Assembly: GCA_963676105.1 (NCBI GenBank) | Contig: OY781039.1 | Span: 1,931,220 to 1,963,219 of the forward strand | Direction of reading: 5' to 3' | Length of the DNA: 32,000 nt | From: Erysipelotrichaceae bacterium | GTDB lineage: Bacteria > Bacillota_I > Bacilli_A > Erysipelotrichales > Erysipelotrichaceae | Shown here: positions 1,097 through 32,000 of the stretch, piece by piece | How the letters are laid out: every line of letters begins with the position of its first letter | How positions within the stretch are numbered: the first letter of the stretch is position 1 | Notes under the pieces: model-generated | The model's database searches: none | What the model was told of the DNA's origin: nothing | Seen by the model: the letters and a program-made list of their open reading frames with translations, nothing else | Translations under genes and position numbers: made by a program

Positions 1097-1106
1097 GAGA
1101 TATAAC

Positions 1107-3074: not shown

Positions 3075-3086
3075 GAGGAACTTTAA

Positions 3087-3533: not shown

Positions 3534-3541
3534 GAAACGAT

Positions 3542-3850: not shown

Positions 3851-3861
3851 GAGGTAGACAC

Positions 3862-4458
3862 ATGGAAGATTTAGAAAAAAGAACACAAGATTTAGTCGAT
3901 GAGATTAATCGAAAAGTCGATCAATTGATTGAAGAGTCGAATCAATATTTTGAAGACGAGAAAAAACGTTTAATTACAGAATATGAGAACGAAGCACGAG
4001 AAGAAACTAGTGTCTATTTAGAACAGGAACTTAATGAACTTAAGATTAATGTTCAACTCAAAGAATCTCAAGCCAAATGGAAAGCACGTAAAGATTTATT
4101 TATTCAACGTCAAACGATGGTCGATGAATTATTTAATGATATTTCTAAAAAATTAATTGCCTATTCACAAAGTACTAAATATGATTCTTGGTTAAAAGAC
4201 TCATTAACAAAAGTGCTTGAAAAAGTAAGTAAAGAAAATCCAGTCGTAATCGAATATAAACCAATTGATCAACCAATGGTTGAACGTTTATGTAAGGACT
4301 ATCAAGATGTTGTGACAATTGAAAGTCGTGAAACGATTTTTATTGGTGGTTATATTGTGACTTATACCAATCTTGGATTAGAGGAAGATAATACCATCGA
4401 TGTTAAGTTAAAGGATCAGAAGGAATGGTTTGCAATCAATTCCGGTCTAGATTTCTAA
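3862..4458 (+). CDS. ntpE: V/A-type ATP synthase subunit E (peripheral stalk)
   Basis: 198 aa with a long charged N-terminal coiled-coil helix and a C-terminal globular part. It sits between F and A. Confidence 0.8.
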   Translation: MEDLEKRTQDLVDEINRKVDQLIEESNQYFEDEKKRLITEYENEAREETSVYLEQELNELKINVQLKESQAKWKARKDLFIQRQTMVDELFNDISKKLIAYSQSTKYDSWLKDSLTKVLEKVSKENPVVIEYKPIDQPMVERLCKDYQDVVTIESRETIFIGGYIVTYTNLGLEEDNTIDVKLKDQKEWFAINSGLDF

Positions 4459-4468
4459 GGAGGGTCAT

Positions 4469-6217: not shown

Positions 6218-6229
6218 GGAGGCGTAAGC

Positions 6230-7669
6230 ATGAGTATTCAATATAAAGGCTTAAAAGAGATTAAAGGTCCCCTTATTGTTTTAGACAATATTAAAAATGT
6301 TGGTTTTGAAGAAATGGTCGAAATCGAACTTGATAACGGCTCAACAAGAACAGGCCGTGTCATCATGATTGAAGGGGATAAAATTGTTGTTCAAGTATTT
6401 GAAGGAACATCAGGTTTATCTCAAATCAATACAAAAACAAAACTCTTAGGACATCCAATGCAAATCGCGTTATCCAAAGAAATTTTAGGTCGTGTCTTTA
6501 ATGGTGCAGGAACTCCGATTGATGGTTTAGGTGAAGTTTTTGCGAATGAATATGCCGATATTAATGGTAGTTCATTAAACCCTGTTATGCGTAAATATCC
6601 ACGTAACTATATCAATACTGGTGTGTCTGGCATTGATGGTTTGAACACTCTAATTCGTGGTCAAAAACTACCAATCTTTTCAGGCTCAGGTTTACCTCAT
6701 AATCAATTAGCGGTACAAATTGTACGTCAAGCGAATATTGCGGCTGAAGCGGGTCAAGAATTTGCGATTGTTTTTGGCGCAATGGGTGTTAAAAATGACG
6801 TAGCGGATTATTTCAGACGTTCATTTGAAGAAACAGGTGTTATGGAAAAAGTTGTTATGTTTATGAACTTATCCAATGACCCAATTATTGAGCGTATCTT
6901 AACGCCACGCTGTGCTTTATCTGCCGCTGAATATCTAGCCTATGATGTAGGTATGCACGTTTTAGTTATATTGACTGATATTACATCCTATTGTGAAGCT
7001 TTACGTGAGTTCTCTTCATCAAAAGAAGAAATTCCAGGACGTAAAGGATATCCAGGTTATATGTACTCTGACTTAGCATCATTATATGAAAGAGCAGGGA
7101 TTGTTGAAGGGCGCAAGGGTTCTGTAACTCAAATTCCTATTCTTACTATTCCTAATGATGATATTACCCATCCAGTTCCTGACTTAACTGGCTATATCAC
7201 AGAAGGTCAAATTGTTTTAGATCGTAATCTTCATCAGAATGGTTTATATCCACCAATTGGTATCTTACCGTCACTGTCTCGTTTAATGAAAGATGGTATT
7301 GGTGAAGGGTATACCCGTAAAGATCATTCATCTCTTGCGACACAACTCTTCGCATGTTATGCAAAAGTTCAAGATGCGCGTTCACTCGCATCTGTTATTG
7401 GTGAAGAAGAGTTATCTGAAGTTGATAGAAAATATATGGCTTATGGTCGTTTATTTGAAAAAGTATATATTGCCCAAGGATTTGAAAATAATCGAGCAAT
7501 CGAAGAAACATTAAATCTCGGTTGGCATTTATTATCCTTATTACCTAAGAAAGAACTCGATCGTATTCCCCAGGAATTAGTGGATGAATACTATGACAAT
7601 CACAATGCGATTGCATACTTCATGGCTGCCATGGGTGGCGATGTCGACGAGATTTTAAAAGAGGCTTAA
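6230..7669 (+). CDS. ntpB: V/A-type ATP synthase subunit B
   Basis: 479 aa with ...[44 protein letters not shown]..., typical of the non-catalytic B subunit. Confidence 0.97.
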
Positions 7670-7672
7670 AAG

Positions 7673-8302
7673 ATGGCCGCAACAAAAATTTCTCCAACTA
7701 AAGGGAACTTATTACATTCTAAAAAATCCCTACAACTTGCGAAACTCGGTTATGATCTAATGGATCGTAAGCGTAGTATTTTAATTCGCGAAATGATGAT
7801 GTTGGTTGATAAAGTCAAACTGTTGCGTGATGAAATCACTGAAGTTTATGCAGAAGCTTATCTTGCGCTTCAAGCAGCTAATATTTCATTAGGGGTTGTT
7901 TCTGAAATTTCCTCTGCCGTTACCATTGAAGATGGTGTGAAAATTGTCTATCGTTCAGTTATGGGCGTTGAGATTCCATCTGTTAGTTGTAGCGATAAAC
8001 CGATTCAATTTGAGTATGGATTTGAAGACTCTAACTCTAAATTAGATGAAGCAACCATCAAGTTTAATCAAGTAAAGAAAATGACCATTTTACTCAGTGA
8101 AATTGATAACTCTATTTATCGATTAGCTCGCGCCATTCAAAAGACTCAAAAACGTGCAAATGCACTTCAAAATATTGTTCTTCCTAATTTAAAAGCTGAC
8201 ATTAAATTCATTGCGGAAGCATTAGAAGAAAAAGAACGTGAAGAGTTTACACGCTTGAAAGTTATTAAGTCACAAAAAGAAAATGCAAAGAATGCAGCTT
8301 AA
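7673..8302 (+). CDS. ntpD: V/A-type ATP synthase subunit D (central stalk)
   Basis: 209 aa. The N-terminal ...SPTKGNLL..KKSLQLAKLGYDLMDRKR... and C-terminal helix are typical of subunit D. Confidence 0.9.
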   Translation: MAATKISPTKGNLLHSKKSLQLAKLGYDLMDRKRSILIREMMMLVDKVKLLRDEITEVYAEAYLALQAANISLGVVSEISSAVTIEDGVKIVYRSVMGVEIPSVSCSDKPIQFEYGFEDSNSKLDEATIKFNQVKKMTILLSEIDNSIYRLARAIQKTQKRANALQNIVLPNLKADIKFIAEALEEKEREEFTRLKVIKSQKENAKNAA

Positions 8303-8354
8303 AAAGTTGCATTTTTTTTTAGGACTATTTGAATTTAATGCGTTTATATATAGT

Positions 8355-8690
8355 ATGAAGGTCTATCAATTTGAAGAACTAGATACATTGGTACGGTTCC
8401 ACTTACGCTTTTATAAGAAGCAAAAAAGCAAAGAAGACTTCTATGCGAATAACATGGAGGTGTGTGAGGCACAAACGCATCGTCCGCTTGAGAAAGTTTA
8501 TGTTTTTTGTATTGAACAATCCCTATCAGAATTGAGTGAAGATGAGCGATTAATACTCACCAAAGAGAATCTCGAATCAACTAATAAAAACTGGTGGATG
8601 GAGTACTTTTCTAAGAGTACATATTATCGATTAAAGTATAAGGCTATGGACCGTTTTATTCATTGTTTACATTCAGAAAGCGTGGTATGA
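8355..8690 (+). CDS. hypothetical small protein with a C-terminal sigma-70 region-4-like helix-turn-helix
   Basis: The ORF track gives 8283-8690; I prefer the ATG at 8355 (MKVYQFEE...) because 8283 overlaps ntpD. The C-terminus ...LSEDERLILTKE...WWMEYFSKSTYYRLKYKAMDRF... resembles small sigma-r4/ArpU-like HTH proteins. No clear SD precedes either start. Confidence 0.4.
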   Translation: MKVYQFEELDTLVRFHLRFYKKQKSKEDFYANNMEVCEAQTHRPLEKVYVFCIEQSLSELSEDERLILTKENLESTNKNWWMEYFSKSTYYRLKYKAMDRFIHCLHSESVV

Positions 8691-8709
8691 TGTTTGTGAA
8701 AATTTCGAC

Positions 8710-8737
8710 TTGAAAATATTTTTTAAGTCGCTATTAA
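8710..8737 (+). promoter_or_regulatory. candidate sigma-70 promoter for ptsI
   Basis: TTGAAA (8710-8715), a 16-nt spacer, then TATTAA (8732-8737), with AAGGAGA before the ATG at 8756. Confidence 0.4.
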
Positions 8738-8755
8738 AAATCTAAGGAGAAACAC

Positions 8756-10465
8756 ATGCTAAAAGGTATTGCTGCAAGTAGTGGCGTAGTCGTCGCGAAA
8801 GCTTACAAAATGGTTCAACCCGTTTTTGAAATCACAAAGAAGACTGCTAATGTTGAGGAAGAATTAGCTAAATTTGAAGCTGCTATTCTAAAGACTCGTG
8901 AAGACATTGAAAGAATTAAAGCGAAAGCTGTTGGAAAACTATCTGACGAAGAATTAGCGATTTTTGATGCTCACATTATGGTTACCATGGATCCTGAGTT
9001 TACAGGTCAAATGGAAGAAATGATTAAGAGTGATAGCGTTAATGCTGATTATGCTTGTCACGAAGTTTCAAGTATGTTCATCAATATGTTTGAAGGAATG
9101 GATGACCCATACTTTAAAGAACGTGCTGCTGATATTAAAGACGTTAGTTACCGTTTAACATGCCATATCTTAGGCTTAGAAATGGCTGACTTATCACTTA
9201 TCAATGAAAAAGTTATTATCGTTGCTCACGATTTAACTCCTTCTGATACAGCTCAGTTAAATAAAGAATTTACATTAGGTTTCGCTACTGCGATTGGTGG
9301 ACGTACATCTCACTCCGCAATTATGGCACGATCACTTGAAATTCCTGCAATCGTTGGTATTTCTGGTTTACTAGAACAAGTTAATCACGGTGATTTAATT
9401 GCTTTAGATGCGATTGATGGTGAGTTACACTTAAATCCTACTGAAGAACAAATCAAAGACTTTGAGAAAAAAGCTGAACGTTACGAAAAATTAAAGGAAA
9501 GCTTAAAAGTTCTTAAAGATGCTGAATCTATCACAACTGATGGACATCACGTTGAATTGGTTGCCAATATCGGTACACCAAATGATGTTGACGGTGTTCT
9601 AAATAATGGTGGTGAAGGTGTTGGTTTATACCGTACAGAATTCCTTTACATGGATGCTAAAGACTTCCCAACAGAGGAAGATCAATATACTGCTTATAAA
9701 ACTGTCCTTGAAAGAATGGGTAAAAAACCTGTTGTTGTTAGAACATTAGATATCGGTGGTGACAAAGAGTTAAGTTACTTAGACCTACCACATGAAATGA
9801 ATCCATTCTTAGGTTATCGTGCGATTCGTTTATGTTTAGATCGTCCAGAGCTTTTTAAAACTCAAATTCGTTCATTACTACGCGCATCAGTACATGGAAA
9901 CCTCTGCATCATGTTCCCAATGATCGCAACGCTTGATGAATTTAGAGCGGCTAAGAAATTTGTAAAAGATACTGAAGCTGAATTAAAAGCAGAAGGAATT
10001 GAAGTGGCTAAATATCAATTAGGTATTATGGTTGAAATTCCTGCAGCTGCAGTACTTGCTGATCAATTTGCGAAAGAAGTTGACTTCTTCTCAATTGGAA
10101 CAAACGACTTGATCCAATACTCAATGGCTGCTGATAGAATGAGTGAAAAAGTTTCTTATCTCTATCAACCATTCAACCCATCATTACTACGTTTAATCAA
10201 AATGACCATCGATGGTGCTCATAAAGAAGGTAAATGGTGTGGAATGTGTGGTGAAATGGCTGGTGAACCATATGCTGTACCTCTACTACTTGGTTTAGGT
10301 TTAGATGAGTTCTCCATGTCTGCAACATCAATCTTACAAGCTCGTAAAATTGTTCGTTCATTAAGCTATAAAGATATGCAAGATTTATCTGCTAAAGCAA
10401 TTAATCTTTCTACAATGGAAGATGTACTTGATTTAGTTAAAAAGAACGTTAAATTTGACGATTAA
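8756..10465 (+). CDS. ptsI: phosphoenolpyruvate-protein phosphotransferase (PTS enzyme I)
   Basis: 569 aa with the active-site His region [21 protein letters not shown] and C-terminal ...[12 protein letters not shown]... Confidence 0.97.
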
Positions 10466-10479
10466 TCTTTAATTATAAT

Positions 10480-10513
10480 GTCTCACTTTAATAACAAAGT
10501 GGGACTTTTTTTA
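10480..10513 (+). terminator. rho-independent terminator after ptsI
   Basis: The 10-bp stem gtctcacttt/aaagtgggac (one G-U pair) has a 6-nt loop and is followed by a T-run at 10506-10512. Confidence 0.8.
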
Positions 10514-10590
10514 TCTATAATAGACATGACTTAAATAACATATTTAGCCCATTAAAAAAAATTTTTTAATGAATTCGCTTACATTACTTT

Positions 10591-10610
10591 AATGTGATTT
10601 ATATCACATT
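10591..10610. promoter_or_regulatory. perfect inverted repeat TGTGA-N6-TCACA (Rex or Crp/Fnr-type operator candidate) upstream of pflB
   Basis: aaTGTGAtttataTCACAtt has 7-bp perfect arms. It is immediately followed by TATACAAT (10611-10618), a -10-like element, about 50 nt before the pflB start. Confidence 0.6.
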
Positions 10611-10659
10611 TATACAATGAAAAAGTATGTTAAATTTGTATTGGAAAAGAGGACTTGTT

Positions 10660-12885
10660 ATGAAAGATGCTTGGAAAAACTTTAAATCTGGAGCTTGGGA
10701 AAGTGAGATTAATGTTGAGGATTTTATTCAAACAAATTATACATACTATACAGGTGATGATTCATTTTTAGCGCCAATTACCGCAAAGACAAAAGCGGTT
10801 TGGGGACGTTGTGAAGAATTATTAGCTGAAGAGTTAAAACTAGGTGTTTTAGACATTGAAATGGATGCGATATCTGGTGTTAATAACTTCAAGCCTGGTT
10901 ATATATTAAGAGAATCTGAATCTATTGTTGGTTTACAAACAGATGCACCATTAAAGCGTATTATTAATCCTTATGGTGGTATTCGTTTGGCGGCTAAAAT
11001 TCTAAAAGTTTATGGTCGAGAAATGAAACCCGAATTTATGACATTCTTTGATGAATATGGAAAAACACATAATCAAGGTGTCTTTGATGCTTATACAGAT
11101 GATATGCGTAAAGCTCGTCATACAGGTTTATTAACGGGTTTACCAGATGCTTATGGACGTGGACGTATCATTGGTGATTATCGTCGTGTTGCCTTATATG
11201 GTATTGATGCCTTAATCGAAGATAAGAAACAAGATTTAAACTTCATCAAAGATATTAATGCTGAAAGCATTCAACTTCGTGAAGAAGTGAGTGATCAAAT
11301 CAAAGCATTAGGCGATATTAAAAAAATGGCCGCAACTTATGGCTTAGATATTTCTGAACCTGCCAAAACAGCTCAAGAAGCAGTTCAATGGTTATACTTT
11401 GCTTACTTAGCAGGTGTCAAAGAAAATAATGGTGCTGCAATGTCATTAGGACGTACATCAACTTTCTTAGATATCTATATTCAAAGAGATTTAGAAAATG
11501 GAAAGATTACTGAAGATCTTGCTCAAGAATACATAGACCAATTCATTATTAAATTACGTTTAGTACGTCATTTAAGATCACCTGAATATGATGAGTTATT
11601 TGCGGGAGATCCAACCTGGGTTACTGAATCTATTGGCGGTATGTCACGTAATAAAACACCTCTAATTACAAAAAATTCTTTTAGATACTTACACTCACTC
11701 ACAAACTTAGGGCCAGCACCTGAGCCTAATATGACAGTTTTATGGTCCGAAAGTTTACCTGAAAACTTTAAGAAATATGCCGCTAAAATGTCAATTGAGA
11801 CAGGTGCAATTCAGTATGAAAATGATGACTTAATGTCACCAATTTATAATAGTGATTATGCCATTGCATGTTGTGTATCTGCGATGGGTATTGGTAAGCA
11901 AATGCAATACTTTGGCGCAAGAACTAATATGGCGAAAGCGTTACTCTATTCGATTAATGGTGGATTAGATGAGGTCTATAACGAAAAAGTTGTAGATGGT
12001 ATCGAAATGATGAATGATGAAGTTTTAGACTATGACAAAGTCATGGCTTCATATACTCAAATTTTAGAAAAAGTTGCGAAACTTTATGTTGATACGATGA
12101 ATATCATTCACTATATGCATGACAAGTATGCGTATGAAAAATCTCAAATGGCTCTACATGATACATATGTTGAACGTATGATGGCATTTGGTGTTGCGGG
12201 CTTATCTGTCGTTGCGGACTCTTTATCAGCTATTAAATATGCTAAAGTAAAACCAATTCGTAATGAATTTGGAGTTGCGACTGATTTTGAAATTGAAGGA
12301 ACATTCCCTAAGTTTGGTAATGATGATGATCGTGTCGATGATATCGCGGTAGAAGTTGTCACGATGTTTTCCAACATGTTAAAGAAACATCCTTTAATTC
12401 GTAACGCAAAACATACGCTATCTATCTTAACCATTACGTCAAATGTGGTCTATGGTTTGAAAACAGGCTCAACACCAGATGGACGTAAAAAAGGTGAACC
12501 ATTTGCGCCTGGCGCAAACCCAATGCACGGACGTGATATTGATGGCGCTATCGCATCATTAAACTCTGTCGCAAAAATCCCTTATGAAGATATTTGCCAA
12601 GATGGTGTTTCAAATACATTCTCAATTATGCCTGAAGCTTTAGGTAAAACTAAAGGTGAACAAGTTGATAATACGGTTTCAATTTTAGATGGTTACTTTA
12701 AATCAAATGCACACCACTTAAATGTTAATGTCTACTCTCGTGAAGTCTTAATGAAAGCGATGGAACATCCTGAACTTTATCCGAATTTAACGATTCGTGT
12801 TTCAGGGTATGCGGTTCATTTCCACCGTCTTACAAAGGCTCAACAACTCGAAGTGCTTAATCGTACTTTTCATGAGTCTATCTAA
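10660..12885 (+). CDS. pflB: pyruvate formate-lyase (formate C-acetyltransferase)
   Basis: Contains the glycyl-radical motif RVSGYAVHF near the C-terminus and the active-site Cys-Cys pair (IACCVSAMG). I moved the start from the track's 10627 to the ATG at 10660 (MKDAWKNF...), which follows AAGAGGA. Confidence 0.96.
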
Positions 12886-13618
12886 TACAGCTTATATACA
12901 AAAAATTGAAAAGCTAGGAACCTTTGATGGACCGGGTATCCGAACAGTATTCTTCCTTTCAGGCTGTCCTTTAAGATGTCTTTATTGTCATAATCCAGAA
13001 ACTTGGAAAGCCAATCAAGGACAAACAATTTCAGTTGAAGAAGTTTTGAGGATTGCTAGACGAAACAAGAATTACTATGGGCTCAAGGGTGGTATTACTT
13101 TAAGTGGTGGTGAACCCTTAATGCAGGCAGACTTTGTATTACAATGTTTCAAAGCATTAAAGGCTGAAGGTTTCCATACTGTTTTAGATACCTCCGGGCA
13201 TAGTTCGAGTCCGTTAATTGATTTAATCTTAGATTATACAGATCTCGTTTTATATGATTTAAAAGCTGCAGACAAGGACATGTATCATTCGATTACTTTA
13301 GGTCAAAAAGATATTACTGATGCTTTTTTGAAAAAGACTCAAGACCATGACTGTAAATTATGGATACGACAGGTATTAGTACCAGGTATTAATGATAATG
13401 TTGTTAATCTAGAACAAAGCGCACAAGTCATTGCCAAGTTAAATAATGTCGAAAGAATCGAAGTCTTGCCTTATCATACTTTAGGCTTAGCTAAATATGA
13501 AAAGATGAATATTGAATATCCGTTAAAAGGATTAAAACCAATGGACATGATACAAGCAGAAGAATTTCAAACAAAACTTAATGTTCGCATCGCACAGTTA
13601 AAAAAAGCTCACCAGTAA
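12872..13618 (+). CDS. pflA: pyruvate formate-lyase activating enzyme (radical SAM)
   Basis: [30 protein letters not shown] contains the CxxxCxxC cluster. I chose the start at ATG 12872 ([10 protein letters not shown]...), which overlaps the pflB 3' end by 14 nt. The track's 12797 start would lie deep inside pflB. Confidence 0.9.
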
Positions 13619-20275: not shown

Positions 20276-20312
20276 ATAAAACAAAAAGAATGAAACATAA
20301 GGTTCCATTCTT
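20276..20312 (-). terminator. rho-independent terminator directly after the GGDEF/HD-GYP gene
   Basis: On the minus strand: aagaatggaac-cttat-gtttcattctt (10 bp, one mismatch) followed by tttttgtttt. The hairpin starts at the stop codon. Confidence 0.7.
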
Positions 20313-22861
20313 TAAGCTCTTAATTCAACATCTACTGTCGCAGCACGGGTTGGTTCGATCATCACATCACCTTGATCAATTAAATTGATAAAGATTTGTG
20401 ATAATTCTGGATCAAATTGTCCGCCGGCATTTCGTCTGATTTCTTCAACCGCATATTCAACCGTATGATAAGTTTTATAGTGACGATCAGATGTAATCGC
20501 ATCAAAGGCATCAGCTAAGCAAATACATCTTGCGCCAAATGGAATGTTTTCACCTCTAAGTTGACGAGGATAACCACGACCATCATATCGTTCGTGATGT
20601 CCAATAACGGCAGGTATAACTTTATTAAAAGTAGGTAAATACTTAATAATGGTGACGGATAAATCTACATGACGTTTCATCACTTCAAATTCTTCATTGG
20701 TTAAACGAGTTGTCTTGGTTAAAATATGTTCTGGTATACCAATCTTACCAATGTCATGAAGAAGTGAAGCTTGTCGAATGATTTCAATATCACTCTCACT
20801 TGCGCCTGCCGCCTGAGCGATGGCAGTCGCGTATTTCGCAACCCGTTGAGAATGACCAAAGGTAATATGATCTTTCGCATCAATGGTTGCGGTTAAGGCA
20901 TAAATGGTTGCCCATTGGTTTTCGCTTAAATCAAACTCTGCGACGGGTGTATCTGCCACTTCGGCAGTATAGATGGTCGTACGGTTACGACCATTACGTT
21001 TTGAGTATATTAAGGCCGTATTGGCATTCTTTAATAAACTAACCGCATCTGCACAGGCACTTGGATACACACATAAACCTACTGACACCGTGACATAACG
21101 TGTACTTTCATTAATGTTTGAAACAGATAAGTCTTCAATTTGAGTTCTAATTTTTTCAGCTAAATCATAACTTTGTTTAGTATCAGAATTATTGAGTAGA
21201 ACACCAAAGATGTCACCTGCATATCTAAAGACTAAGGTCGATTCATGAACACTTCGTTTGATTCGATCTGCAATCTTTGTTAAGACAAAGTCGCCAGATA
21301 GATGACCATAGATATCGTTGTACACCGTTAATGAATCGATGCCAAATAAGATAAGGGATAAACTTATGGGTTTCGCATCCACATGTTTATTTAATGCTTC
21401 CATGAAATAGCGGTGATTATACGTTTGGGTTAATGAATCCGTAATCGCTTCTGTTTGTGTCTTTTCGAATAATAAGGCATTTGTTAAAGCCATCGCCGCA
21501 GTTGAACACATGAGTTCAATTGATTCAATATGATGGAAAGCTTCAACAGATCTGTGATCAGTGTGACAGATTAACATAAAACCAATTAAGTCATGATGAA
21601 CTTTTAAAGGTATCGCAATCTCAAATAATAGTTCGTTTAAATGGTCAAAATCTTCTTCCCACATGGATTTAAAGAGTGGGTGTTGATAAAGATCTTCCCC
21701 ATGTATAGGTTTATCATCATTTTCGAACCATTTCGCAAATGGATGATTTAAATTAAATTTGAGTTTTTTACGTTCAAGTTTCTTAGATGATGCATAACAT
21801 TCATACTCTTCTTGAACTGAATTTTTAAGATAAAGATAAATTTTTCCATGTTCTAGGATAGATTGAGAGATTTTGATCAATTCTTCACTGATTTCTTTCG
21901 CATTTAAATTATTTGCGACTGATTGGGTAAAGTTATGAATTTCTGTTTCTCTTCTCATTTCATCTTTATAGAAGAATTGATTAATGAGTTTATGAATTAA
22001 AGAAAAGATAGGTTGGAAAATTAAAATCCCAATAATAATCGCTAGCACAAAGACAATTGAATTATCAATGCCAGTATTGAGAGATTGAAAGAATGACCAA
22101 GCTTTATTTAAGACAAACGAGGTTGTGATAGAAAGTGCAACCAAGGCAACACTTAAAGTTAATGCTTTTGTGATGACTATTTTTAGTTCAATAACACGAT
22201 TTGCGTAGACTGCTTTCATCATCATTAATACAGCTATTGATCCCGCAAAGAAGTCAAATGGATATTTCCCAATGATTGGGACAAGATTTATTCCCATTCC
22301 GATAAAGATAATAAAGAGAGACACAACAATCTGTTTCAAACCTTTATTAATGGAGAGTGATTTCTTAATATGGTTATGAGCAATCAAGAAACAAGACATT
22401 AATTGTAAGAAAATTAAACCATAAGAAACATAAGCTCCCCAAGATAAGGTGTAGTTTAATTGAGTGTATGGGGCAATATCTAAAGCCATCATGTGGGCTT
22501 CTGATGTGACATGTCCTGTAAAGATAAGTCCAACCATAAAGATGGTGATTAGACCCCACATTGTGATTGGAATCCAACGTCTACGATCAATATAAACATT
22601 TAAGAATATATATGCTGCATATGGAAGGATCGCACTTCCCATAATCATGATTCGATTATAAAATAGGGTACCAGGATAAACATCTAACTTCATTAATAAT
22701 GAAGAAGCACTCCATATAGCCATTGAAAATACGACTAAGACAAAGGATTTAATCATCGCATCTTTCTTAGATAAAACTAAAATCGCAAGTAAAGTTAAAC
22801 TCAATAAAAAGGCAGTGGTTGGAAGTCCCCAATAGAATAGGGTTAGGCCATAATCACTCAT
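20312..22861 (-). CDS. multi-TM sensor with GAF-like region, degenerate GGDEF domain and HD-GYP phosphodiesterase domain
   Basis: 849 aa with about 8 N-terminal TM helices (residues 1-290). The GGDEF-domain core is ...DSLTQTYNHRYF...GDFVL...FRYAGDIFGVLL (signature AGDIF). The HD-GYP core is ...FGHSQRV...LLHDIGKIGIP...GHHERYDGRGYP... GGGAGGA SD upstream; ATGA overlap with the GH3 gene. Confidence 0.9.
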   Translation of the reverse strand: MSDYGLTLFYWGLPTTAFLLSLTLLAILVLSKKDAMIKSFVLVVFSMAIWSASSLLMKLDVYPGTLFYNRIMIMGSAILPYAAYIFLNVYIDRRRWIPITMWGLITIFMVGLIFTGHVTSEAHMMALDIAPYTQLNYTLSWGAYVSYGLIFLQLMSCFLIAHNHIKKSLSINKGLKQIVVSLFIIFIGMGINLVPIIGKYPFDFFAGSIAVLMMMKAVYANRVIELKIVITKALTLSVALVALSITTSFVLNKAWSFFQSLNTGIDNSIVFVLAIIIGILIFQPIFSLIHKLINQFFYKDEMRRETEIHNFTQSVANNLNAKEISEELIKISQSILEHGKIYLYLKNSVQEEYECYASSKKLERKKLKFNLNHPFAKWFENDDKPIHGEDLYQHPLFKSMWEEDFDHLNELLFEIAIPLKVHHDLIGFMLICHTDHRSVEAFHHIESIELMCSTAAMALTNALLFEKTQTEAITDSLTQTYNHRYFMEALNKHVDAKPISLSLILFGIDSLTVYNDIYGHLSGDFVLTKIADRIKRSVHESTLVFRYAGDIFGVLLNNSDTKQSYDLAEKIRTQIEDLSVSNINESTRYVTVSVGLCVYPSACADAVSLLKNANTALIYSKRNGRNRTTIYTAEVADTPVAEFDLSENQWATIYALTATIDAKDHITFGHSQRVAKYATAIAQAAGASESDIEIIRQASLLHDIGKIGIPEHILTKTTRLTNEEFEVMKRHVDLSVTIIKYLPTFNKVIPAVIGHHERYDGRGYPRQLRGENIPFGARCICLADAFDAITSDRHYKTYHTVEYAVEEIRRNAGGQFDPELSQIFINLIDQGDVMIEPTRAATVDVELRA

Positions 22862-26235: not shown

Positions 26236-26564
26236 TTTTTAAAGATGAAATTAAAAAACCATATTATGCTGTTATATTTAGTTCAGTGCGGACAAATGGT
26301 GATAACGAATATTCAAACATGTCTAGAATCATAGGAGAGAAAGTCTCAAGATTACCAGGGTTTTTAGGCGTAGAAAGCATGCGCAATGAAAATGGTTTTG
26401 GGATTACCATTTCTTATTGGGACAACCTTGATAGTATACAAACCTGGAAAATGGATGAGGAACATAGAAAGGCAAAGTTTTTAGGTAAGAAAATCTGGTA
26501 TAAAGAATATAAAATTAGAATATGTAAAGTTGAAGAAGATAATTATTTTGTAAACGAATCATAA
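26232..26564 (+). CDS. antibiotic-biosynthesis-monooxygenase (ABM)-like small protein
   Basis: 110 aa. YYAVIFSS...LPGFLGVES...ITISYWDNLDSIQTWKMDEEHRKA fits the ABM ferredoxin-like fold pattern. ATGA overlap with the FAH gene. Confidence 0.7.
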   Translation: MIFKDEIKKPYYAVIFSSVRTNGDNEYSNMSRIIGEKVSRLPGFLGVESMRNENGFGITISYWDNLDSIQTWKMDEEHRKAKFLGKKIWYKEYKIRICKVEEDNYFVNES

Positions 26565-26587
26565 AAAGGAGTTGTCACTCCTTTTTT
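26563..26587. terminator. bidirectional terminator between the convergent ABM gene and pilT
   Basis: aaaaaggagt-tgtc-actccttttt, a GC core with A/T extensions, gives a T-run on both strands. Confidence 0.75.
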
Positions 26588-26589
26588 AC

Positions 26590-27633
26590 TTATTTAAATG
26601 TTTCTGGATCAAAAGCGTGCTTCATAGCCACATCCTTTGTGACTTGATTATCATCAACCAATTTCTTTATGCTCTCGTCCATTGTAATCATACCCGCATC
26701 TTTGGATACACGTATCGTCGCATTAAGCTGATGTGTTTTGCCTTCACGAATTTGATTGCGAATAGCTGTATTGTTAACCATAACTTCAAAAGCTGGAAGG
26801 ATTCGTTGATCAACAGTTGGAATAAGTTGTTGAGATACAACCGCTTGAAGTACCATTGCAAGTTGGATACGTACTTGGTGTTGTTGCTCAGCAGGGAAAA
26901 CATCGACAATTCGATCAATGGTGTTTGATGCGCCCAAAGTATGCAGCGTTGAAAATACAAGGTGCCCTGTTTCAGCAGCGGTAAGTGCTAATGAAATAGT
27001 TTCTAGATCACGCATTTCACCTACAAATAATACATCAGGACTTTGTCTTAATGCTGAACGTAAAGCAATTGCAGTACTTTCACAATCGGTACCAATCTCG
27101 CGCTGTGTAACAACCGATTGATTATGTCTAAATAGGAATTCAATTGGATCATCAATGGTAATGATATGACCTCTACGATTATTGTTGATTGCACTTAGAA
27201 TCATAGCCATTGTGGTTGATTTACCACAACCAGCAGGTCCACTTACAATGACTAAACCTTTTGTAAGATTAGAGAAACGCATGACGTTTTCTGGAACGTG
27301 CATATCACTTGGTTGAGGAATATCAAATCGTACAATTCTAAGAACTGCTGCTAAACTTGATCGTTGAGTATATACGTTAGCTCTAAATCTAGCAACTTTT
27401 GGGATTGAAAATGAAAAATCATCATCACCCGTATCATTAACTTTATCCATTGAACGATTTGCGACTTCGTAGATATGTTCAATAAGCTCACGCGTATCAT
27501 TAGGTGTTAATCGATCACCATCCATTTGTTGCATTTCGTTTTTAATTTTTAGCGCAACACTTGTACCGGCAACGATAAATAAATCTGATGCGCCAAGTGA
27601 CATGGCTTTTTCAATGAGTTGATCTAATTTCAT
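26590..27633 (-). CDS. pilT: PilT-family type IV pilus retraction-type ATPase
   Basis: 347 aa with Walker A GPAGCGKST, DDPIEF, Walker B DVLFVGEMRD, His box AAETGHLVFSTLHT and the PilT-specific AIRNQIREGK (26737-26766). GGAGG SD upstream; TAATG overlap with the upstream gene. Confidence 0.93.
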   Translation of the reverse strand: MKLDQLIEKAMSLGASDLFIVAGTSVALKIKNEMQQMDGDRLTPNDTRELIEHIYEVANRSMDKVNDTGDDDFSFSIPKVARFRANVYTQRSSLAAVLRIVRFDIPQPSDMHVPENVMRFSNLTKGLVIVSGPAGCGKSTTMAMILSAINNNRRGHIITIDDPIEFLFRHNQSVVTQREIGTDCESTAIALRSALRQSPDVLFVGEMRDLETISLALTAAETGHLVFSTLHTLGASNTIDRIVDVFPAEQQHQVRIQLAMVLQAVVSQQLIPTVDQRILPAFEVMVNNTAIRNQIREGKTHQLNATIRVSKDAGMITMDESIKKLVDDNQVTKDVAMKHAFDPETFK

Positions 27634-28064
27634 TATTGACCTCCATAGACTGGATTACCATCTTGTGTGTAATCTTGATTGTTTAATATACTTAGTCTCT
27701 TTGATTCTAAAATTAATGTTTTGTTTGTCACATCCATTGATAATAATACTTCAATGTTTAAATGATTATTTGTTAATTCAATGATAATGGTTTCTGTATC
27801 TTTATCGTAAGACACCATCTCTAAATTGTCTATGACCACAAATAATTCATCACTTTGATAATATTCATTTACTTCTTGAATAATTTGTTCAGCTTCAGTT
27901 TCTATGTTGTATGTATCAGATATAAAATTCATGCTTTTAAGAATACTATTACGTGTTTGTCGTACATCTACAAGTAAGACTGAAACGACTGAATAAACCA
28001 AAATTAAAATGAGAATAGACAATAGGGTTGGTAAGCCAAATGGATTAAAACCACGTTTTTTCAT
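27633..28064 (-). CDS. small N-terminally anchored protein, ComGG-like minor pseudopilin candidate
   Basis: I prefer ATG 28064 (GAGGT 6 nt upstream, ATGA overlap with the previous stop) over 28085. MKKRGFNPFGLPTLLSILILILV resembles the ComGG N-terminus (..RGF.. with no Glu5). Confidence 0.45.
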   Translation of the reverse strand: MKKRGFNPFGLPTLLSILILILVYSVVSVLLVDVRQTRNSILKSMNFISDTYNIETEAEQIIQEVNEYYQSDELFVVIDNLEMVSYDKDTETIIIELTNNHLNIEVLLSMDVTNKTLILESKRLSILNNQDYTQDGNPVYGGQ

Positions 28065-28414
28065 CGTGATACCTCGACTTCCCAAGAAGTAATCAGATTG
28101 TCATCACTATCTTTTAAACTTAGAGTTATCCAATCAAAATCATTCACACTATCTTTTTTTAAATAAAGTGTATACGATGGATTCACATTAGTTATTTGTC
28201 CATTTTCATCAAATCTTAGTGCAGACAAAGATGTTTCACTGTTAAGTGTTTCTGATAAACTTATCATATGATTTTGAATGTTTGATAATGCCATGTTCTC
28301 TTGATGTGTTCTATTGGCTGAAAGTAATAGGAAAAAGGCTACAAACAATCCAAGACTTAGAAAAATAACATTTAAGCTGATTTCCAGCATGAAGTTCTTT
28401 TGTGTCTTATTCAT
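28061..28414 (-). CDS. small N-terminally anchored protein, ComGD/GE-like minor pseudopilin candidate
   Basis: I prefer ATG 28414 (AGGTGA 5 nt upstream) over GTG 28429. MNKTQKNFMLEISLNVIFLSLGLFV resembles a degenerate KGFTLLESL prepilin motif (Asn for Gly-1, Glu at +4). Confidence 0.4.
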   Translation of the reverse strand: MNKTQKNFMLEISLNVIFLSLGLFVAFFLLLSANRTHQENMALSNIQNHMISLSETLNSETSLSALRFDENGQITNVNPSYTLYLKKDSVNDFDWITLSLKDSDDNLITSWEVEVSR

Positions 28415-28850
28415 AAACTTCACCTGCACTTAATTTATATAAAAGATTTATCGTTTCATTGGCTTCATTTTGATAATGAATATTTAATAAATTATTATCT
28501 AATGACAATTTCAAATCGTAAGCATAGGCAATCGTTTCTCCACCATTTTCAAAGCGGGTAGGGTTAGTTGACACTTGTTCTTTTAGCTGATGATCTTCTT
28601 CATAAATTAAAATGTAATAAGATTCTAAATTAAAGACAAGCATAGACTCTTCAATGCTAATTGAATCTATAAAATCATTTTGTTTAATACGGTTATTAAA
28701 ATAAAGACGAATACTACGATCATTTAGTTCAACTTGTGTTTCAGTTTGGATTTTTTGACTAAGATTTGCACCATAAGAAATAAGCAAACTAGAAGCAATT
28801 ACTAAGATCAAAATCATTAAAAGAGAAAGGGCAGCACTATTTTTTTTCAT
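28407..28850 (-). CDS. small N-terminally anchored protein, ComGF-like candidate
   Basis: 147 aa. MKKNSAALSLLMILILVIASSLL anchor followed by a beta-rich domain whose layout recalls ComGF. AGGAGGGG SD upstream; TAATG overlap. Confidence 0.4.
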   Translation of the reverse strand: MKKNSAALSLLMILILVIASSLLISYGANLSQKIQTETQVELNDRSIRLYFNNRIKQNDFIDSISIEESMLVFNLESYYILIYEEDHQLKEQVSTNPTRFENGGETIAYAYDLKLSLDNNLLNIHYQNEANETINLLYKLSAGEVYE

Positions 28851-29140
28851 TAGTCATCCCCTCCTATTCGATAGATATGGATGGTAGGTCTGAAATTTGA
28901 TGCGAAAGCTTTATAAGTAACGACAAAGGAATCATCAACAACAATTCCATAGTTCTCAATTAAATAATCTAATTGTGCAGGATAAAAACCTTCTTGTGCA
29001 TAACAAAGTGTCAGCGCATTTTGTATCGCTGTTTCTAAGCTTTTTTGATTCAATGCCTTTTGTTCATCTTCCATTCTCATAATTAGAAAGAAACTTAGAA
29101 CTAAGGCAAGGATGAAGACAAGAACGGTTGTTTTTTTCAT
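28850..29140 (-). CDS. GspG/ComGC-like pseudopilin candidate lacking a class III (prepilin) signal
   Basis: 96 aa. MKKTTVLVFILALVLSFFLI anchor, a long helix, then YAQEGFYPAQLDYL (28961-29002), matching the Y...G.YP..L..L motif of GspG/ComGC-type pseudopilins. An in-frame TAA just upstream excludes a longer N-terminus. Confidence 0.5.
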   Translation of the reverse strand: MKKTTVLVFILALVLSFFLIMRMEDEQKALNQKSLETAIQNALTLCYAQEGFYPAQLDYLIENYGIVVDDSFVVTYKAFASNFRPTIHIYRIGGDD

Positions 29141-29143
29141 ACT

Positions 29144-30166
29144 TTATCCTAAGGTAGACATAACGTTTAATAATGGTAAGATCATTGAGAATACAATCGC
29201 AAAGACCATAGCCGTTAAGAGTGTAATTAACCATGGTTCAATTTTATTTAAACTCGTATTGAGTTGATTTTGGGCTTTTTGATTCAAAGAAACTGCTAAG
29301 TCCTCTAAAGCGTTTTCTAATTGACCTGCTTTAGCGGCGATATTTATAGTACTTAAATCAAGGGCTTCATATAAGGTGTTATTCAATAAGAGTTCATATA
29401 AACCTTCGGCAGGATCTAATTTTGATTTTGCGAGTTTAAGTTTTTCATCAAAGTTCTTACTACTATCATTTGCTTTAACTAAATCTAAGGCAGTGCGATT
29501 ATCAATCCCACCAGAGAGTGCCATATGAGCCATTGATGTATAATAGGCAACTTGTGTTGTTTCGTAGGCTTTTGGAAATAAACGCAAAATACGTGTTTCC
29601 CAGGAAGGATGATTTGATGGATCATTTTGATGATTGATTTCACCTAAACCAAACCAGATAACTAAAACCATATAAACAGCCATTAATGCGACACTAAATC
29701 CTTTAAGTATATATAAGAAGGCGCTTAAACTTGCGCTTTGACTGATGCCCAATTGGCTAAACAAATTTTGAAATAGCGGTAATATTGACCAAGCCATTAA
29801 AACTAAGATGACGCCAAAGATAGCCAATAAAATAATCGGTAAACTCAAACTCTCTTTTAAGAACTGTTTAAGTTCTGATTGACGATTGAAATGCTTAGTC
29901 ATTTGTTTAAAGAGCTTTTCTTCTTGACCAACTTTTTCTGCGATTTCTAATGAGTCAATAAAATACTGAGGAAAAGCTCCATCTTGTTTAAAGACATAGG
30001 ATAATTGAGGATTTTCATAGAAAGATACTTGCCAGGATTTAATGTCATAGAGTTCTAGATTTTCAAGTAGACTTAAACCTCTTTCAACATCTGTACCAGA
30101 TGCATAGAGATAAGATAATTGATGACATAAACTAGATAGTTCTTGTGCGGTATATTGTTTTTTCAT
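29144..30166 (-). CDS. PilC/ComGB/GspF-family platform protein
   Basis: 340 aa with two repeated cytoplasmic T2SS-F-like helical domains, each followed by TM segments. C-terminal ...MILPLLNVMSTLG. AAGGAGA SD upstream. Confidence 0.85.
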   Translation of the reverse strand: MKKQYTAQELSSLCHQLSYLYASGTDVERGLSLLENLELYDIKSWQVSFYENPQLSYVFKQDGAFPQYFIDSLEIAEKVGQEEKLFKQMTKHFNRQSELKQFLKESLSLPIILLAIFGVILVLMAWSILPLFQNLFSQLGISQSASLSAFLYILKGFSVALMAVYMVLVIWFGLGEINHQNDPSNHPSWETRILRLFPKAYETTQVAYYTSMAHMALSGGIDNRTALDLVKANDSSKNFDEKLKLAKSKLDPAEGLYELLLNNTLYEALDLSTINIAAKAGQLENALEDLAVSLNQKAQNQLNTSLNKIEPWLITLLTAMVFAIVFSMILPLLNVMSTLG

Positions 30167-30174
30167 AGGTCTCC

Positions 30175-31110
30175 TTAATAGTGATCTTGATCTTGATAAG
30201 TACCATCGTATTCACCCATGGAATCGAAGGTAGGATCAACTCTTTTCCATTCTTCACTTTCAAAATAGATACTTGGATTTATCCATCCTTTATCATCTAA
30301 ATAAACTTCAACCCATGCATGATAGCCCACATCAGTCATGCCTGTTATGATTCGAGTTGGAATATGTTGCGCTCTAAGCATTGCGGTCATTAAGGCTGCA
30401 TAATCAAAGCAGATACCTTTTTGGCTAATATAGGTTTCATCTACAATAGGTAAAATAAAGGTTTTTGAAGCCACCTCAGCCTTATCGTAATCATAAGTAA
30501 TATTCTCAGTAATGTAGGTATAGATTTCATAGACTCGTTGAAGATCACTTGTTGCTTCTTCTGTGAGTGTGAAGGATTCTAAAACTGCTTGTGTATTTTC
30601 ATCATAATTAATGATTTGATTCGGATAAAGATAAGGACTATTTTCATCATCTAGACTGACTTCAATATTTGTAGAAGCTAAAATACTATAACTTGTCCCA
30701 TCAACATTTCGTAATGCTCGAATGGTATATTCACCATTACCCATTTGAAGAGGTACAATAACATATTCATTTACCACTAAATCATACGTGTATATTAGAT
30801 CATCTAAGATAACTTGAACTTTTTGTTTTTGAGTACTATCAGGTGCTTTAATACTGACATAACCATAAGCTGCATTAGAGTAGTCGATAAGTATGCCATT
30901 ACTTTCAAAGATTGATGAGCCTGGCTGAGTCGGTAATAATAAATCATTAATGGTAAAAGAAGGTGAAGGTGTTCCAGCTTCTGGGTATTCATTTGAACTT
31001 ACTGTGGATGTACTTGGTTTTTCTTGTATTGTTCCACTACTTTCACTACAGCTACTTAAAAAGAGTAGAGTGCAAACGATTAAGTTGATATAAGTAAATG
31101 ATTTGTGCAT
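30175..31110 (-). CDS. transglutaminase-like (Cys-His-Asp papain-fold) lipoprotein
   Basis: Lipobox LLFLSSC|S. The catalytic core is GICFDYAALMTAMLRAQHIPTRIITG...GYHAWVEVYLDDKGWI...VDPT, giving the Cys, His, Asp triad in canonical order. Confidence 0.85.
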   Translation of the reverse strand: MHKSFTYINLIVCTLLFLSSCSESSGTIQEKPSTSTVSSNEYPEAGTPSPSFTINDLLLPTQPGSSIFESNGILIDYSNAAYGYVSIKAPDSTQKQKVQVILDDLIYTYDLVVNEYVIVPLQMGNGEYTIRALRNVDGTSYSILASTNIEVSLDDENSPYLYPNQIINYDENTQAVLESFTLTEEATSDLQRVYEIYTYITENITYDYDKAEVASKTFILPIVDETYISQKGICFDYAALMTAMLRAQHIPTRIITGMTDVGYHAWVEVYLDDKGWINPSIYFESEEWKRVDPTFDSMGEYDGTYQDQDHY

Positions 31111-31135: not shown

Positions 31136-31144
31136 ATTATAGCA
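31136..31144 (-). promoter_or_regulatory. extended -10 promoter element (TGcTATAAT) for the pilus-like operon
   Basis: On the minus strand, gTGcTATAAT lies about 25 nt upstream of the ATG at 31110, directly downstream of the preceding gene's terminator. I found no good -35. Confidence 0.45.
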
Positions 31145-31145
31145 C

Positions 31146-31172
31146 TGAAAAAAAAGAGCCCGAGGGCTCTTT
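31146..31172 (-). terminator. rho-independent terminator after the surface-protein gene
   Basis: On the minus strand: aaagagcc-ctcg-ggctcttt followed by a T-run (tttttt). Confidence 0.85.
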
Positions 31173-31179
31173 CATATGA

Positions 31180-32000
31180 TTATAGTTGAATCATTGTATT
31201 GTATTCTTCGTCATAATCAGCTGGAATTACAACACTGTGAACAAGGTGGCCGCGAAGCACGAAGTTAACCGTTAAGTTACCTAAGTGTTTTGCGAGACGT
31301 TTGTAGATTGTCACATCAATAGTAGTGATATCAATTAAGTCTTTATCATTGAGTTCAACAATATAAACCGTTTGATCATCATCAGGTTTTGATAGACGTC
31401 TACGTAATGTCTTTTCAGTACCATCTTTTGTTTTGAGTGTGTATTTAATATTAGGTCTGATAAAGGCGAGAAGTAAAGGTAATAATCCTAGTAACCAATA
31501 CAACCAACTAAAGTCCATTGGAAGTGCTGCAAGAGGTGTTTCTTCAGGTTCTTCAACTTCAATCACACCTTGTGTAACACTAATTACAACATTGGCTGTA
31601 TTAGAATCTAATTCACCATCATTAGCGATAAAACTAAAGCTATCGCTGCCTACAAAACCGGTATTTGGTGTATAGGTGAATGATCCATCCTCATTGAATG
31701 TCAACGTACCATTTGATACATCTGATGTTAGTGAGAAGGTTAATGCATCACCATCAGCATCACTCGCGTTTGCTTGTCCACTAATAACTGTTTCATATTC
31801 TGTGGAGATATTTCCATCATTAGCAACTGGAGCTGTATTTAATGCAGCTAGAGGCGTAGGTGTAGGAGTGACTGTAACTGTTACTGGAGGTGTAGTAGGA
31901 GGAGTGGTAGGAGGTGTAACTGGAGGAGCAGGAGGAGCTGTAACAGTGATTGTAACTGTAACAACATTAGAATCTAATTCACCATCATTTGCATGATATG
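31180..32000 (-). CDS. large surface protein with cadherin-like/Ig-like tandem repeats, C-terminal part (5' end outside window)
   Basis: The track's TTG start at 31704 is internal; I translated the same frame and it stays open to 32000. Repeat unit: APVANDGNISTEYETVISGQANASDADGDALTFSL...NGTLTFNEDGSFTYTPNTGFVGSDSFSFIANDGELDSNTANVVISV. It also has a Pro/Thr linker, one TM helix (FSWLYWLLGLLPLLLAFI) and a ~95-aa tail. Confidence 0.8.
   Translation of the reverse strand, partial: YHANDGELDSNVVTVTITVTAPPAPPVTPPTTPPTTPPVTVTVTPTPTPLAALNTAPVANDGNISTEYETVISGQANASDADGDALTFSLTSDVSNGTLTFNEDGSFTYTPNTGFVGSDSFSFIANDGELDSNTANVVISVTQGVIEVEEPEETPLAALPMDFSWLYWLLGLLPLLLAFIRPNIKYTLKTKDGTEKTLRRRLSKPDDDQTVYIVELNDKDLIDITTIDVTIYKRLAKHLGNLTVNFVLRGHLVHSVVIPADYDEEYNTMIQL
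31601..31989. repeat. in-gene tandem repeat (366-nt period) of the surface-protein domain
   Basis: An identical 23-mer ttagaatctaattcaccatcatt occurs at 31601-31623 and 31967-31989. This corresponds to ...NDGELDSN... in successive repeat units. Confidence 0.7.

Follow-up and report, generated by a model that had tools for sequence, protein, structure and literature searches.

Four kinds of component define a machine of the type IV filament (T4F) superfamily, namely an assembly ATPase, a platform protein, a prepilin peptidase and pilins carrying a class III signal; PilT is the textbook motor that serves for retraction only. The class III signal is made up of a hydrophilic leader that ends in glycine (Gly-1), about 21 hydrophobic residues and a glutamate at position 5 (Glu5) (PMC6916266). 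In the current analysis we have studied a cassette of seven coupled genes on the minus strand of a 32,000-nucleotide stretch from an Erysipelotrichaceae bacterium (contig OY781039.1); the whole of this stretch is referred to as the window. The cassette (31110..26590) encodes, in this order, a transglutaminase-like lipoprotein (TGL), a platform protein, four small proteins with an N-terminal hydrophobic anchor (S1 to S4) and an ATPase of the PilT family.

The cassette is a relative, as yet uncharacterised, of the type IV pilus machines, and its sole motor is PilT. It is common to many gut Erysipelotrichales and to at least one species of Clostridia. With a confidence somewhat better than even, we regard it as a functional operon with a fixed set of seven genes that encodes a divergent member of the T4F superfamily. 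This membership is suggested by the ATPase, the platform and the ancestry of the subunits, the complete class III signal being absent from the subunits of the window lineage. The filament-like character of the cassette and its unusual list of parts had been pointed out in a preliminary description made from the letters of the window, and both are upheld here. Related loci, numbered L001 to L017, have been examined over up to 10 kb of sequence on each side.

Motor, platform and lipoprotein

The ATPase gives 138 bits with PF00437 (T2SSE) and scores well above the cut-off of the PilT/PilU family TIGR01420 (403 bits against 319). The cut-offs of the assembly-type models ComGA NF041000 (136.7 bits against 300) and GspE TIGR02533 (115 bits against 630) are not reached, and the PilB model gives 114 bits. 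Aquifex PilT (2GSZ) is matched with an E-value of 1.7e-94 and PilB and GspE with about 1e-24; the identity to Aquifex PilT is about 50% as judged by eye from the alignment. The Walker A and B motifs, the His box and the signature AIRNQIREGK are all present. On these matches the protein can be considered a bona fide PilT; it is the sole T2SSE-family ATPase in the window.

Pfam scans of the open reading frames of 100 or more amino acids in the window revealed no second T2SSE ATPase and no Peptidase_A24. No PilB/ComGA or PilD has been found in up to 10 kb per side of nine other loci, and domain scans detected no PilM/N/O domain in the window or around the related loci. The preliminary description had stated that the only ATPase carries the PilT signature and is encoded last, and that the window has no PilB/GspE/ComGA-type ATPase and no PilD/ComC peptidase; these statements agree with the scans.

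The platform protein matches T2SSF (PF00482) in two stretches with 60.4 bits. Its best NCBIfam model is ComGB (NF041012), with 86.9 bits under a cut-off of 240, and the 80.8 bits obtained with GspF TIGR02120 do not reach the cut-off of 424. The match to PilC of Myxococcus xanthus has an E-value of 1e-9.

TGL has a Transglut_core domain (PF01841, 82.6 bits against a cut-off of 23). Cys21 of its lipobox and its Cys-His-Asp triad (Cys234, His264 and Asp292) do not vary among 8 orthologues, and in the PDB the putative cysteine protease 3ISR is matched with an E-value of 1e-4. By its domain and triad TGL is placed in the transglutaminase-like superfamily and is predicted to be an enzyme, either a protease or a transglutaminase. 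Profile hidden Markov model searches hence leave the earlier domain assignments of the ATPase, platform and TGL standing, and the transglutaminase-fold lipoprotein described as heading the operon is an integral and conserved member of the cassette.

Descent of the small proteins

A version of the cassette from the Clostridia bears on the ancestry of the small proteins. It has been found in Acetoanaerobium noterae (NZ_CP154629.1, L017 8992-13767) by a tblastn search of the platform against a plasmid collection, and its order is platform-S1-S2-S3-S4-PilT-TGL, with the transglutaminase gene last. The S3-like protein starts with MNKRNG/FTLIEIIISIG (a slash marks the end of the leader), gives 28.4 bits with N_methyl against a cut-off of 21.2 and satisfies the class III definition. 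The S2-like protein reads MKKNNKG/VSKVE, with both Gly-1 and Glu5, and gives 93.5 bits with DUF4860; the S4-like protein reads TRTG/SSSILVILLVV, with Gly-1. The S1-like protein has no class III signal. The record that encodes this cassette is 2.63 Mb long, is labelled a plasmid, has no more than 4 annotated features and appears to be of chromosome size. Another membrane transglutaminase, TgpA-like and 724 amino acids long, is encoded 3 kb upstream of the cassette (L017 3762-5936).

The window proteins can be related to those of A. noterae by hhalign for S1 (99.3%), S2 (97.3%) and S4 (82.8%, with Gly aligned to Gly), and by synteny and a weak N-terminal hhalign match (E-value 0.02) for S3. Because the A. 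noterae cassette carries prepilin motifs and its proteins are homologous or syntenic to those of the window, S2, S3 and S4 most likely descend from type IV pilins. Since the same seven genes are present in A. noterae, the PilT-only list of parts and the transglutaminase are traits of the whole family.

S2 of the window matches DUF4860 (PF16152) with 30.4 bits, above the cut-off of 25, and has no leader, no Gly and no Glu. The hhalign register with A. noterae starts at residue 8 of the window protein; extrapolated back to the N-terminus, it puts Met1 level with residue +1 of the prepilin from Acetoanaerobium, in which case S2 would be leaderless relative to its Clostridia homologue and would have lost Glu5. 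An AlphaFold2 model built on a 17-sequence alignment (mean predicted local distance difference test, pLDDT, 90.4) has a helix of 56 residues (2-57) and eight strands, a shape suggestive of the pilin lollipop. Its top PDB matches in Foldseek are two minor pseudopilins, XcpW (5bw0; probability 0.99, E-value 0.06, TM score 0.44) and, next, GspJ (3ci0; probability 0.85, E-value 0.56).

S3 has a 6-residue basic leader ending in Lys and an invariant Glu11 early in the hydrophobic helix, at the same precursor position as the Glu of MNKRNG/FTLIE; the position of Gly-1 is occupied by Lys, Ala, Arg, Val, Leu or Ser in the different lineages. S4 has the basic leader MKKRGFNPFG, whose last Gly is invariant, and then a stretch of about 22 hydrophobic residues without Glu5. 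At its extreme C-terminus the motif NxQDYTQDGDPVYGG is kept in five of the six aligned lineages, that of Longibaculum (L011) being divergent, and could form a metal- or ligand-binding tip. The class III definition (PMC6916266) is satisfied by none of S1 to S4 in the window lineage, and S4 alone comes close. The signals thus appear to have decayed in this lineage, S2 being leaderless, S3 lacking Gly-1 and only S4 keeping its Gly; if so, processing by a prepilin peptidase would be at most a minor requirement.

In the alignments S1 consists, in every lineage, of MKK followed by a transmembrane helix, and it has the invariant motif CYAxEGxYPxxLxYLxxxYG; there is no leader, Gly or Glu, the class III signal being absent in all lineages aligned. 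A single-sequence model of low confidence (pLDDT 69) has helices at 2-49 and 54-64 and three short strands, and no meaningful Foldseek match was obtained with this low-confidence model. S1 is possibly the major subunit; its pilin nature is unproven.

Family searches with the small proteins were largely negative. None of the pilin, N_methyl or ComG models of Pfam and NCBIfam matches S1, S3 or S4, and N_methyl matches no protein of the window. Profiles of S1 to S4 compared with PDB sequences gave E-values of about 0.3-2 only, and the TcpA pilin, the top match of S1 with a 4-sequence profile, is not significant. Comparisons by hhalign of the S1, S3 and S4 profiles with approximate sequences of ComGC, PulG, ComGF and ComGG were insignificant, with E-values of 0.07-0.28 over 15 columns for ComGC, ComGF and ComGG, and are taken as pointers only.

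These results divide the earlier claims on the small proteins. The specific labels given to them (GspG/ComGC-like, ComGF-like, ComGD/E-like and ComGG-like) find no supporting family model for S1, S3 and S4, whereas their pilin-like character in general is borne out by the canonical prepilin of A. noterae and the lollipop-shaped model of S2. The absence of class III signals holds strictly for the pattern G/F-x-x-x-E, but an invariant Gly remains in S4 and an invariant Glu in S3. Structure prediction gives S2 a pilin-like shape and leaves S1 with a model of low confidence.

Recurrence of the cassette

The gene set recurs at a minimum of nine other loci. The same seven genes in the same order are encoded in L001/L005 (the Erysipelotrichaceae metagenome-assembled genome OY760660.1), L002/L003, L007, L008/L009, L010/L011 (Longibaculum), L012/L013 and L016. 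L004 and L006 are contig-end fragments from one sample that are consistent with the cassette, L004 having been reached via a homologue of the platform. All seven informative PilT homologues that were sampled (51-85% identity) lie within the same cassette or at the cut end of one; L014 (P0089) is uninformative, since on its contig of 7.8 kb the start is only some 330 bases away from the ATPase gene. Because the flanking genes vary between loci, the seven genes can be said to persist as a unit, a point that the preliminary description had put up for testing. That description had also raised an adaptation to a thin or absent cell wall, which is not borne out, the cassette being present in Longibaculum and Acetoanaerobium as well, both of which are regarded as walled bacteria.

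Ratios of nonsynonymous to synonymous substitution rates (dN/dS) against L001 range from 0.06 to 0.25 for all seven genes, the small ones included, with dS near saturation. All seven genes are under purifying selection. Together with the recurrence, this makes the arrangement more than a chance one.

The platform has few close homologues, and those of PilT grade from 100% to about 54% identity. A scan of genome contigs with a platform profile retrieved one species representative, OY760660.1, with patterns too strict to gauge distribution. An exhaustive search with S2 gave 17 clusters, which would make the cassette rare; this has been rejected, as look-ups guided by the ATPase show many divergent copies.

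In Longibaculum the names assigned by the public annotation pipeline PGAP are transglutaminase-like domain protein, type II secretion system (T2SS) F family protein, hypothetical protein, DUF4860, two further hypothetical proteins, and PilT. With three of the four small proteins hypothetical, no system is therefore recognised in public annotation, and no description of the cassette or of DUF4860 was found in the literature.

The ATPase of L016 (10001-11509) has 502 amino acids and two T2SSE matches, apparently through a partial internal duplication of the PilT-like gene. Insertion sequence-type genes (rve integrase with HTH_28) are immediate neighbours of the cassette in two loci unrelated to each other: in L001 (13632-14878) they lie downstream of the ATPase gene, where the window has an ABM-domain gene, and in L008 (5185-6434) upstream of the TGL gene, where other loci have an adhesin.

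Operon signals and neighbouring genes

The positions of the seven genes (Table 1) were confirmed in the list of open reading frames, and all seven products are found, with identical starts, among the public gene calls of a single contig of 1,963,219 bp. The mechanical reading frame of S3 starts at GTG 28429 and the ATG start at 28414 gives 117 residues; the ATG at 28064 gives the 143 residues of S4. Start and stop codons are coupled as TAATG at 28850 and 27633 and as ATGA at 28061-28064, the genes of S2 and S3 overlap by 8 nucleotides, and the remaining two junctions are gaps of 8 nucleotides (TGL to platform) and 3 nucleotides (platform to S1). All junctions are as first described. So are the hairpins on either side and the TGnTATAAT element of the operon itself, TGCTATAAT, which is presumed to be its promoter. 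The same spacer holds a terminator together with a TGnTATAAT-type element at four other loci; the element is kept in 5 loci, the hexamer of L004 being TATACT. The hairpin at the other end of the operon is shared by the ABM-domain and ATPase genes and is probably a bidirectional terminator.

Table 1. Features of the window and of related loci
Feature	Coordinates	Strand	Evidence or remark
TGL, transglutaminase-like lipoprotein, 311 aa	30175..31110	-	Transglut_core
Platform, PilC/GspF/ComGB family, 340 aa	29144..30166	-	T2SSF
S1, bitopic, 96 aa	28850..29140	-	Alignments, single-sequence model
S2, DUF4860, 147 aa	28407..28850	-	PF16152, AlphaFold2 model
S3, probably pilin-derived, 117 aa	28061..28414	-	Alignment, synteny with A. 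noterae prepilin
S4, 143 aa	27633..28064	-	Alignment, hhalign to A. noterae S4-like protein
PilT-family hexameric ATPase, 347 aa	26590..27633	-	TIGR01420
TGCTATAAT, extended -10 element, presumed promoter	31136..31144	-	Read directly from sequence
Terminator-like hairpin with T-run, 3' of adhesin gene	31152..31173	-	Equivalent hairpin in same spacer of L001, L002, L004, L007
Hairpin flanked by A- and T-runs	26563..26586	.	Between convergent ABM-domain and ATPase genes
Giant Big_9/cadherin-repeat surface protein gene, 3' end, runs off window	31180..32000	-	Pfam Big_9, Cadherin_4, Cadherin_5
Adhesin gene at related loci	L001 4990-8985; L002 5320-8991; L004 2903-6316; L007 1-1566		Conserved C-terminal module
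c-di-GMP-I aptamers	L001 4686-4768, 4863-4945 (tandem); L002 5187-5271; L004 2613-2697, 2772-2857 (tandem)		RF01051
Longibaculum-type neighbour regions	L010/L011 1-6473, 11279-21059; L012/L013 11234-21056		

The giant adhesin gene is a neighbour of the operon and lies outside it; its orthologues carry a Sec signal. Its C-terminal module is made up of the ETPLAALP segment (ETPLAALPMDFSW), a transmembrane helix, the stretch RPNIKYTL...RRRL.KPD and, as a tail, about 90 residues without a Pfam match. This module is far better kept than the repeats and is present in L001, L002, L004, L007 and L015. The adhesin gene is situated directly upstream of the cassette in three different genomic contexts, and a metagenome scan with the module retrieved one short contig, in which TGL again follows. 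The module could be one of docking or cleavage associated with the cassette.

Cyclic di-GMP (c-di-GMP)-I riboswitch aptamers (RF01051, 56-64 bits against a cut-off of 35) have been identified directly upstream of the adhesin gene; the window ends before the equivalent region. A protein of 849 amino acids with seven-transmembrane (HisKA_7TM), GGDEF and HD-GYP domains is encoded 4 kb from the cassette at 20312-22861 of the window (minus strand) and at the same position in L001, and is likely to be an enzyme of c-di-GMP turnover.

A giant SpaA-repeat protein is encoded downstream of the cassette in two further contexts. In the Longibaculum-type loci the cassette is followed by a regulator of the SARP family and by a protein of 3,500-4,100 amino acids with SpaA/SdrD_B repeats. 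In L010/L011 the cassette also lies downstream of a response regulator-GGDEF gene, CheA, CheW and a trio of HSP70, DnaJ and DUF5685 genes. None of the genes comEA, comEC and comFA was found near the cassette in the sequence around any locus. At the other end of the window (56-13618; G+C about 34%) housekeeping genes are encoded, namely a V/A-type ATPase operon (56-8302), the gene of phosphotransferase system enzyme I (8756-10465) and those of pyruvate formate-lyase and its activase (10627-13618); this fits a chromosome of the Erysipelotrichaceae.

Proposed function of the cassette and alternative explanations

In the mechanism proposed for the T4F operon, a PilT hexamer would dock on the platform and use ATP to shift S1 to S4 into or out of the membrane. 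This movement would build and/or retract a short pseudopilus or tip complex, and TGL, anchored at the outer face of the membrane, would cleave or cross-link a surface partner. PilT-driven insertion or extraction of S1 to S4 is suggested by analogy with the rest of the superfamily (PMC6916266, PMC6668835). The likeliest role would be surface adhesion or display, or the handling of giant adhesins. Adhesion is favoured over the uptake of DNA because giant adhesin genes controlled by riboswitches flank many copies of the cassette, no comE genes lie nearby and comGA-GG loci have been reported elsewhere in the order.

Several points weigh against this reading. The filament and its function are predictions made from the genes. 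To our knowledge PilT-family ATPases are motors of disassembly and no assembly machine driven by PilT only has been described. The synteny holds largely among related lineages. S1 has no significant pilin similarity in sequence or profile searches and could be modelled with low confidence only (pLDDT 69), and the matches of S2 to XcpW and GspJ are not significant by their E-values (0.06 and 0.56). A terminator separates the adhesin gene from the operon, and in L008/L009, L016 and L017 no giant protein is adjacent, so that the linkage is not universal. A PilB/ComGA and a prepilin peptidase acting in trans may be encoded elsewhere in the genome: the A. noterae record has three T2SSE-like places, two of them besides the cassette, and canonical comGA-GG loci have been reported in other Erysipelotrichales (PMC12786226).

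The best of the alternatives, which we consider unlikely and nevertheless take seriously, is that the cassette depends, as one module among others, on an otherwise canonical type IV pilus or Com system spread over several loci. It would supply a dedicated platform, a set of minor pilins for the tip and a retraction motor, with PilB/ComGA, the peptidase and perhaps the major pilin coming from other loci. The additional ATPase loci of A. noterae and the comG loci just mentioned are in its favour, as is the canonical prepilin S3 of the Clostridia, which presumably requires a peptidase from outside the cassette; S4 retains a basic leader with an invariant Gly. PilT proteins are retraction motors in the characterised systems (PMC6916266, PMC6668835), and different systems often have a prepilin peptidase in common (PMC6668835). 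A platform of its own would, however, be superfluous in a mere accessory module, and the loss of Gly-1 from S2 and S3 in the Erysipelotrichales is contrary to a continued dependence on the peptidase. Neither PilB nor PilD was seen in the sequence around some ten loci, and S1 is conserved and adjoins the platform as the genes of major pilins do in comG operons.

It is quite improbable that the cassette encodes a membrane complex other than a filament, formed by S1 to S4, the platform and the ATPase, that controls a pair of adhesin and protease, TGL cleaving or cross-linking the neighbouring giant adhesin, for example at the juxtamembrane ETPLAALP, in the manner of LapG/LapA or PPEP-1/CD2831 under the control of c-di-GMP. 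The intact papain-like triad of TGL and the lipid anchor that would place it at the outer face of the membrane are consistent with such a complex, as are the better conservation of the adhesin C-terminal module than of the repeats, the tandem c-di-GMP-I riboswitches upstream of the adhesin and the GGDEF/HD-GYP protein near the cassette in the window and L001. The cleavage of the adhesin is nevertheless hypothetical, and Transglut_core is not known to be the family of LapG. Moreover, that adhesin does not accompany the cassette in L008/L009, L016 and L017, in L010-L013 the giant protein beside it is one of the SpaA type, S2 to S4 trace to pilins, and a platform with PilT is the core of a filament machine.

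Still less probable is a pseudopilus for competence, encoded by a rearranged comG operon in which a PilT-type ATPase replaces ComGA. The sizes and order of the platform and small proteins (340; 96, 147, 117 and 143 amino acids) are like those of ComGB, ComGC, ComGD, ComGE and ComGF/ComGG of Bacillus subtilis, and ComGB is the best NCBIfam match of the platform. Yet the scores with both ComGA and ComGB are far under the cut-offs, there is no match to ComGC, ComGF, ComGG or N_methyl, no comEA, comEC or comFA lies near any locus and the neighbouring genes point to adhesion. Separate canonical comGA-GG loci are moreover reported in the Erysipelotrichales (PMC12786226), and the DNA-uptake role entertained in the preliminary description is accordingly not favoured.

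A decaying and non-functional remnant of a type IV pilus, as the degenerate class III signals of S2 and S3 and the absence of an assembly ATPase and a peptidase from the cassette might suggest, is very improbable, given seven intact reading frames in about ten loci, low dN/dS for every gene, intact ATPase motifs and TGL triad, and conserved coupling and promoter element.

Beyond the favoured reading of a divergent T4F operon, a more far-reaching proposal can be made, which is tentative and on balance doubtful. The cassette would represent a hitherto unrecognised class of filament machines of gut Bacillota without an assembly-type ATPase and, in the Erysipelotrichales, largely without processing by a peptidase, in which PilT drives the assembly and/or extraction of leaderless pilins and TGL covalently processes or cross-links the filament or the adhesin under the control of c-di-GMP.

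The cassette retains PilT alone, and its prepilin signals appear to have been lost stepwise, being canonical in Acetoanaerobium and degenerate or leaderless in the window lineage. It therewith offers a natural test of whether an ATPase of the PilT clade can power assembly and whether pilins can work without the cleavage of a leader. The surface enzyme of transglutaminase fold would be a new conserved accessory of a type IV filament-like machine, and the gene neighbourhoods suggest a tie between the cassette and c-di-GMP-regulated giant adhesins in common gut commensals.

Comparison with known systems

On the sequence comparisons the cassette belongs neither to ComG nor to T2SS nor to the type IVa pili; of the type IVa set it has PilT and, within the window and related loci, neither PilB nor PilM/N/O. 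With ComG (comGA-GG and comC) it shares a monoderm host, a two-domain platform of about 340 amino acids followed by anchored small proteins of similar size, coupled genes and one ATPase per locus. ComGG has Gly-1 but no Glu5, as has S4, the last of the small proteins here. In contrast to ComG, the ATPase is of the PilT clade and is encoded last, no ComG model reaches its cut-off, S1 to S3 have no prepilin motif, a transglutaminase-like lipoprotein is obligate and no link to com genes has been seen around the loci.

The type IVa pili of monoderms (Streptococcus sanguinis, Clostridia) also have PilT, a PilC-type platform and pilin-derived subunits, and in Clostridioides difficile pili and adhesins are likewise under the control of c-di-GMP riboswitches. 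Unlike these pili, the cassette locus has only seven genes, with no PilB, PilD or PilMNO among them, and the candidate for the major pilin has no class III signal. Surveys across the type IV filament superfamily require a recognisable major pilin (PMC6668835), and the cassette has none.

With T2SS (GspG-K, GspE/F) the cassette shares the concept of a short pseudopilus, and the best structural match of S2 is GspJ/XcpW. GspK-type subunits lack Glu5, like S4. A role in secretion or surface display is possible. The ATPase is, however, not GspE, GspC/L/M and a secretin are absent from the cassette, and the host is a monoderm.

The LapA/LapG and CD2831/PPEP-1 pairs offer an analogy of another kind, that of a giant adhesin gene beside the gene of a surface enzyme of papain fold or protease-like type and an adhesin controlled by a c-di-GMP riboswitch. 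TGL differs from both enzymes in matching Transglut_core, which is not known to be the family of LapG or of the M34 proteases.

We know of no described system whose single ATPase belongs to the PilT clade. In Tad/Flp systems CpaF/TadA is of another ATPase clade, the platform is TadB/TadC and the Flp pilins are processed by TadV. These differences apart, CpaF, which serves as the one ATPase for both extension and retraction (PMC11300603, PMC6668835), provides a precedent for a single bifunctional ATPase.

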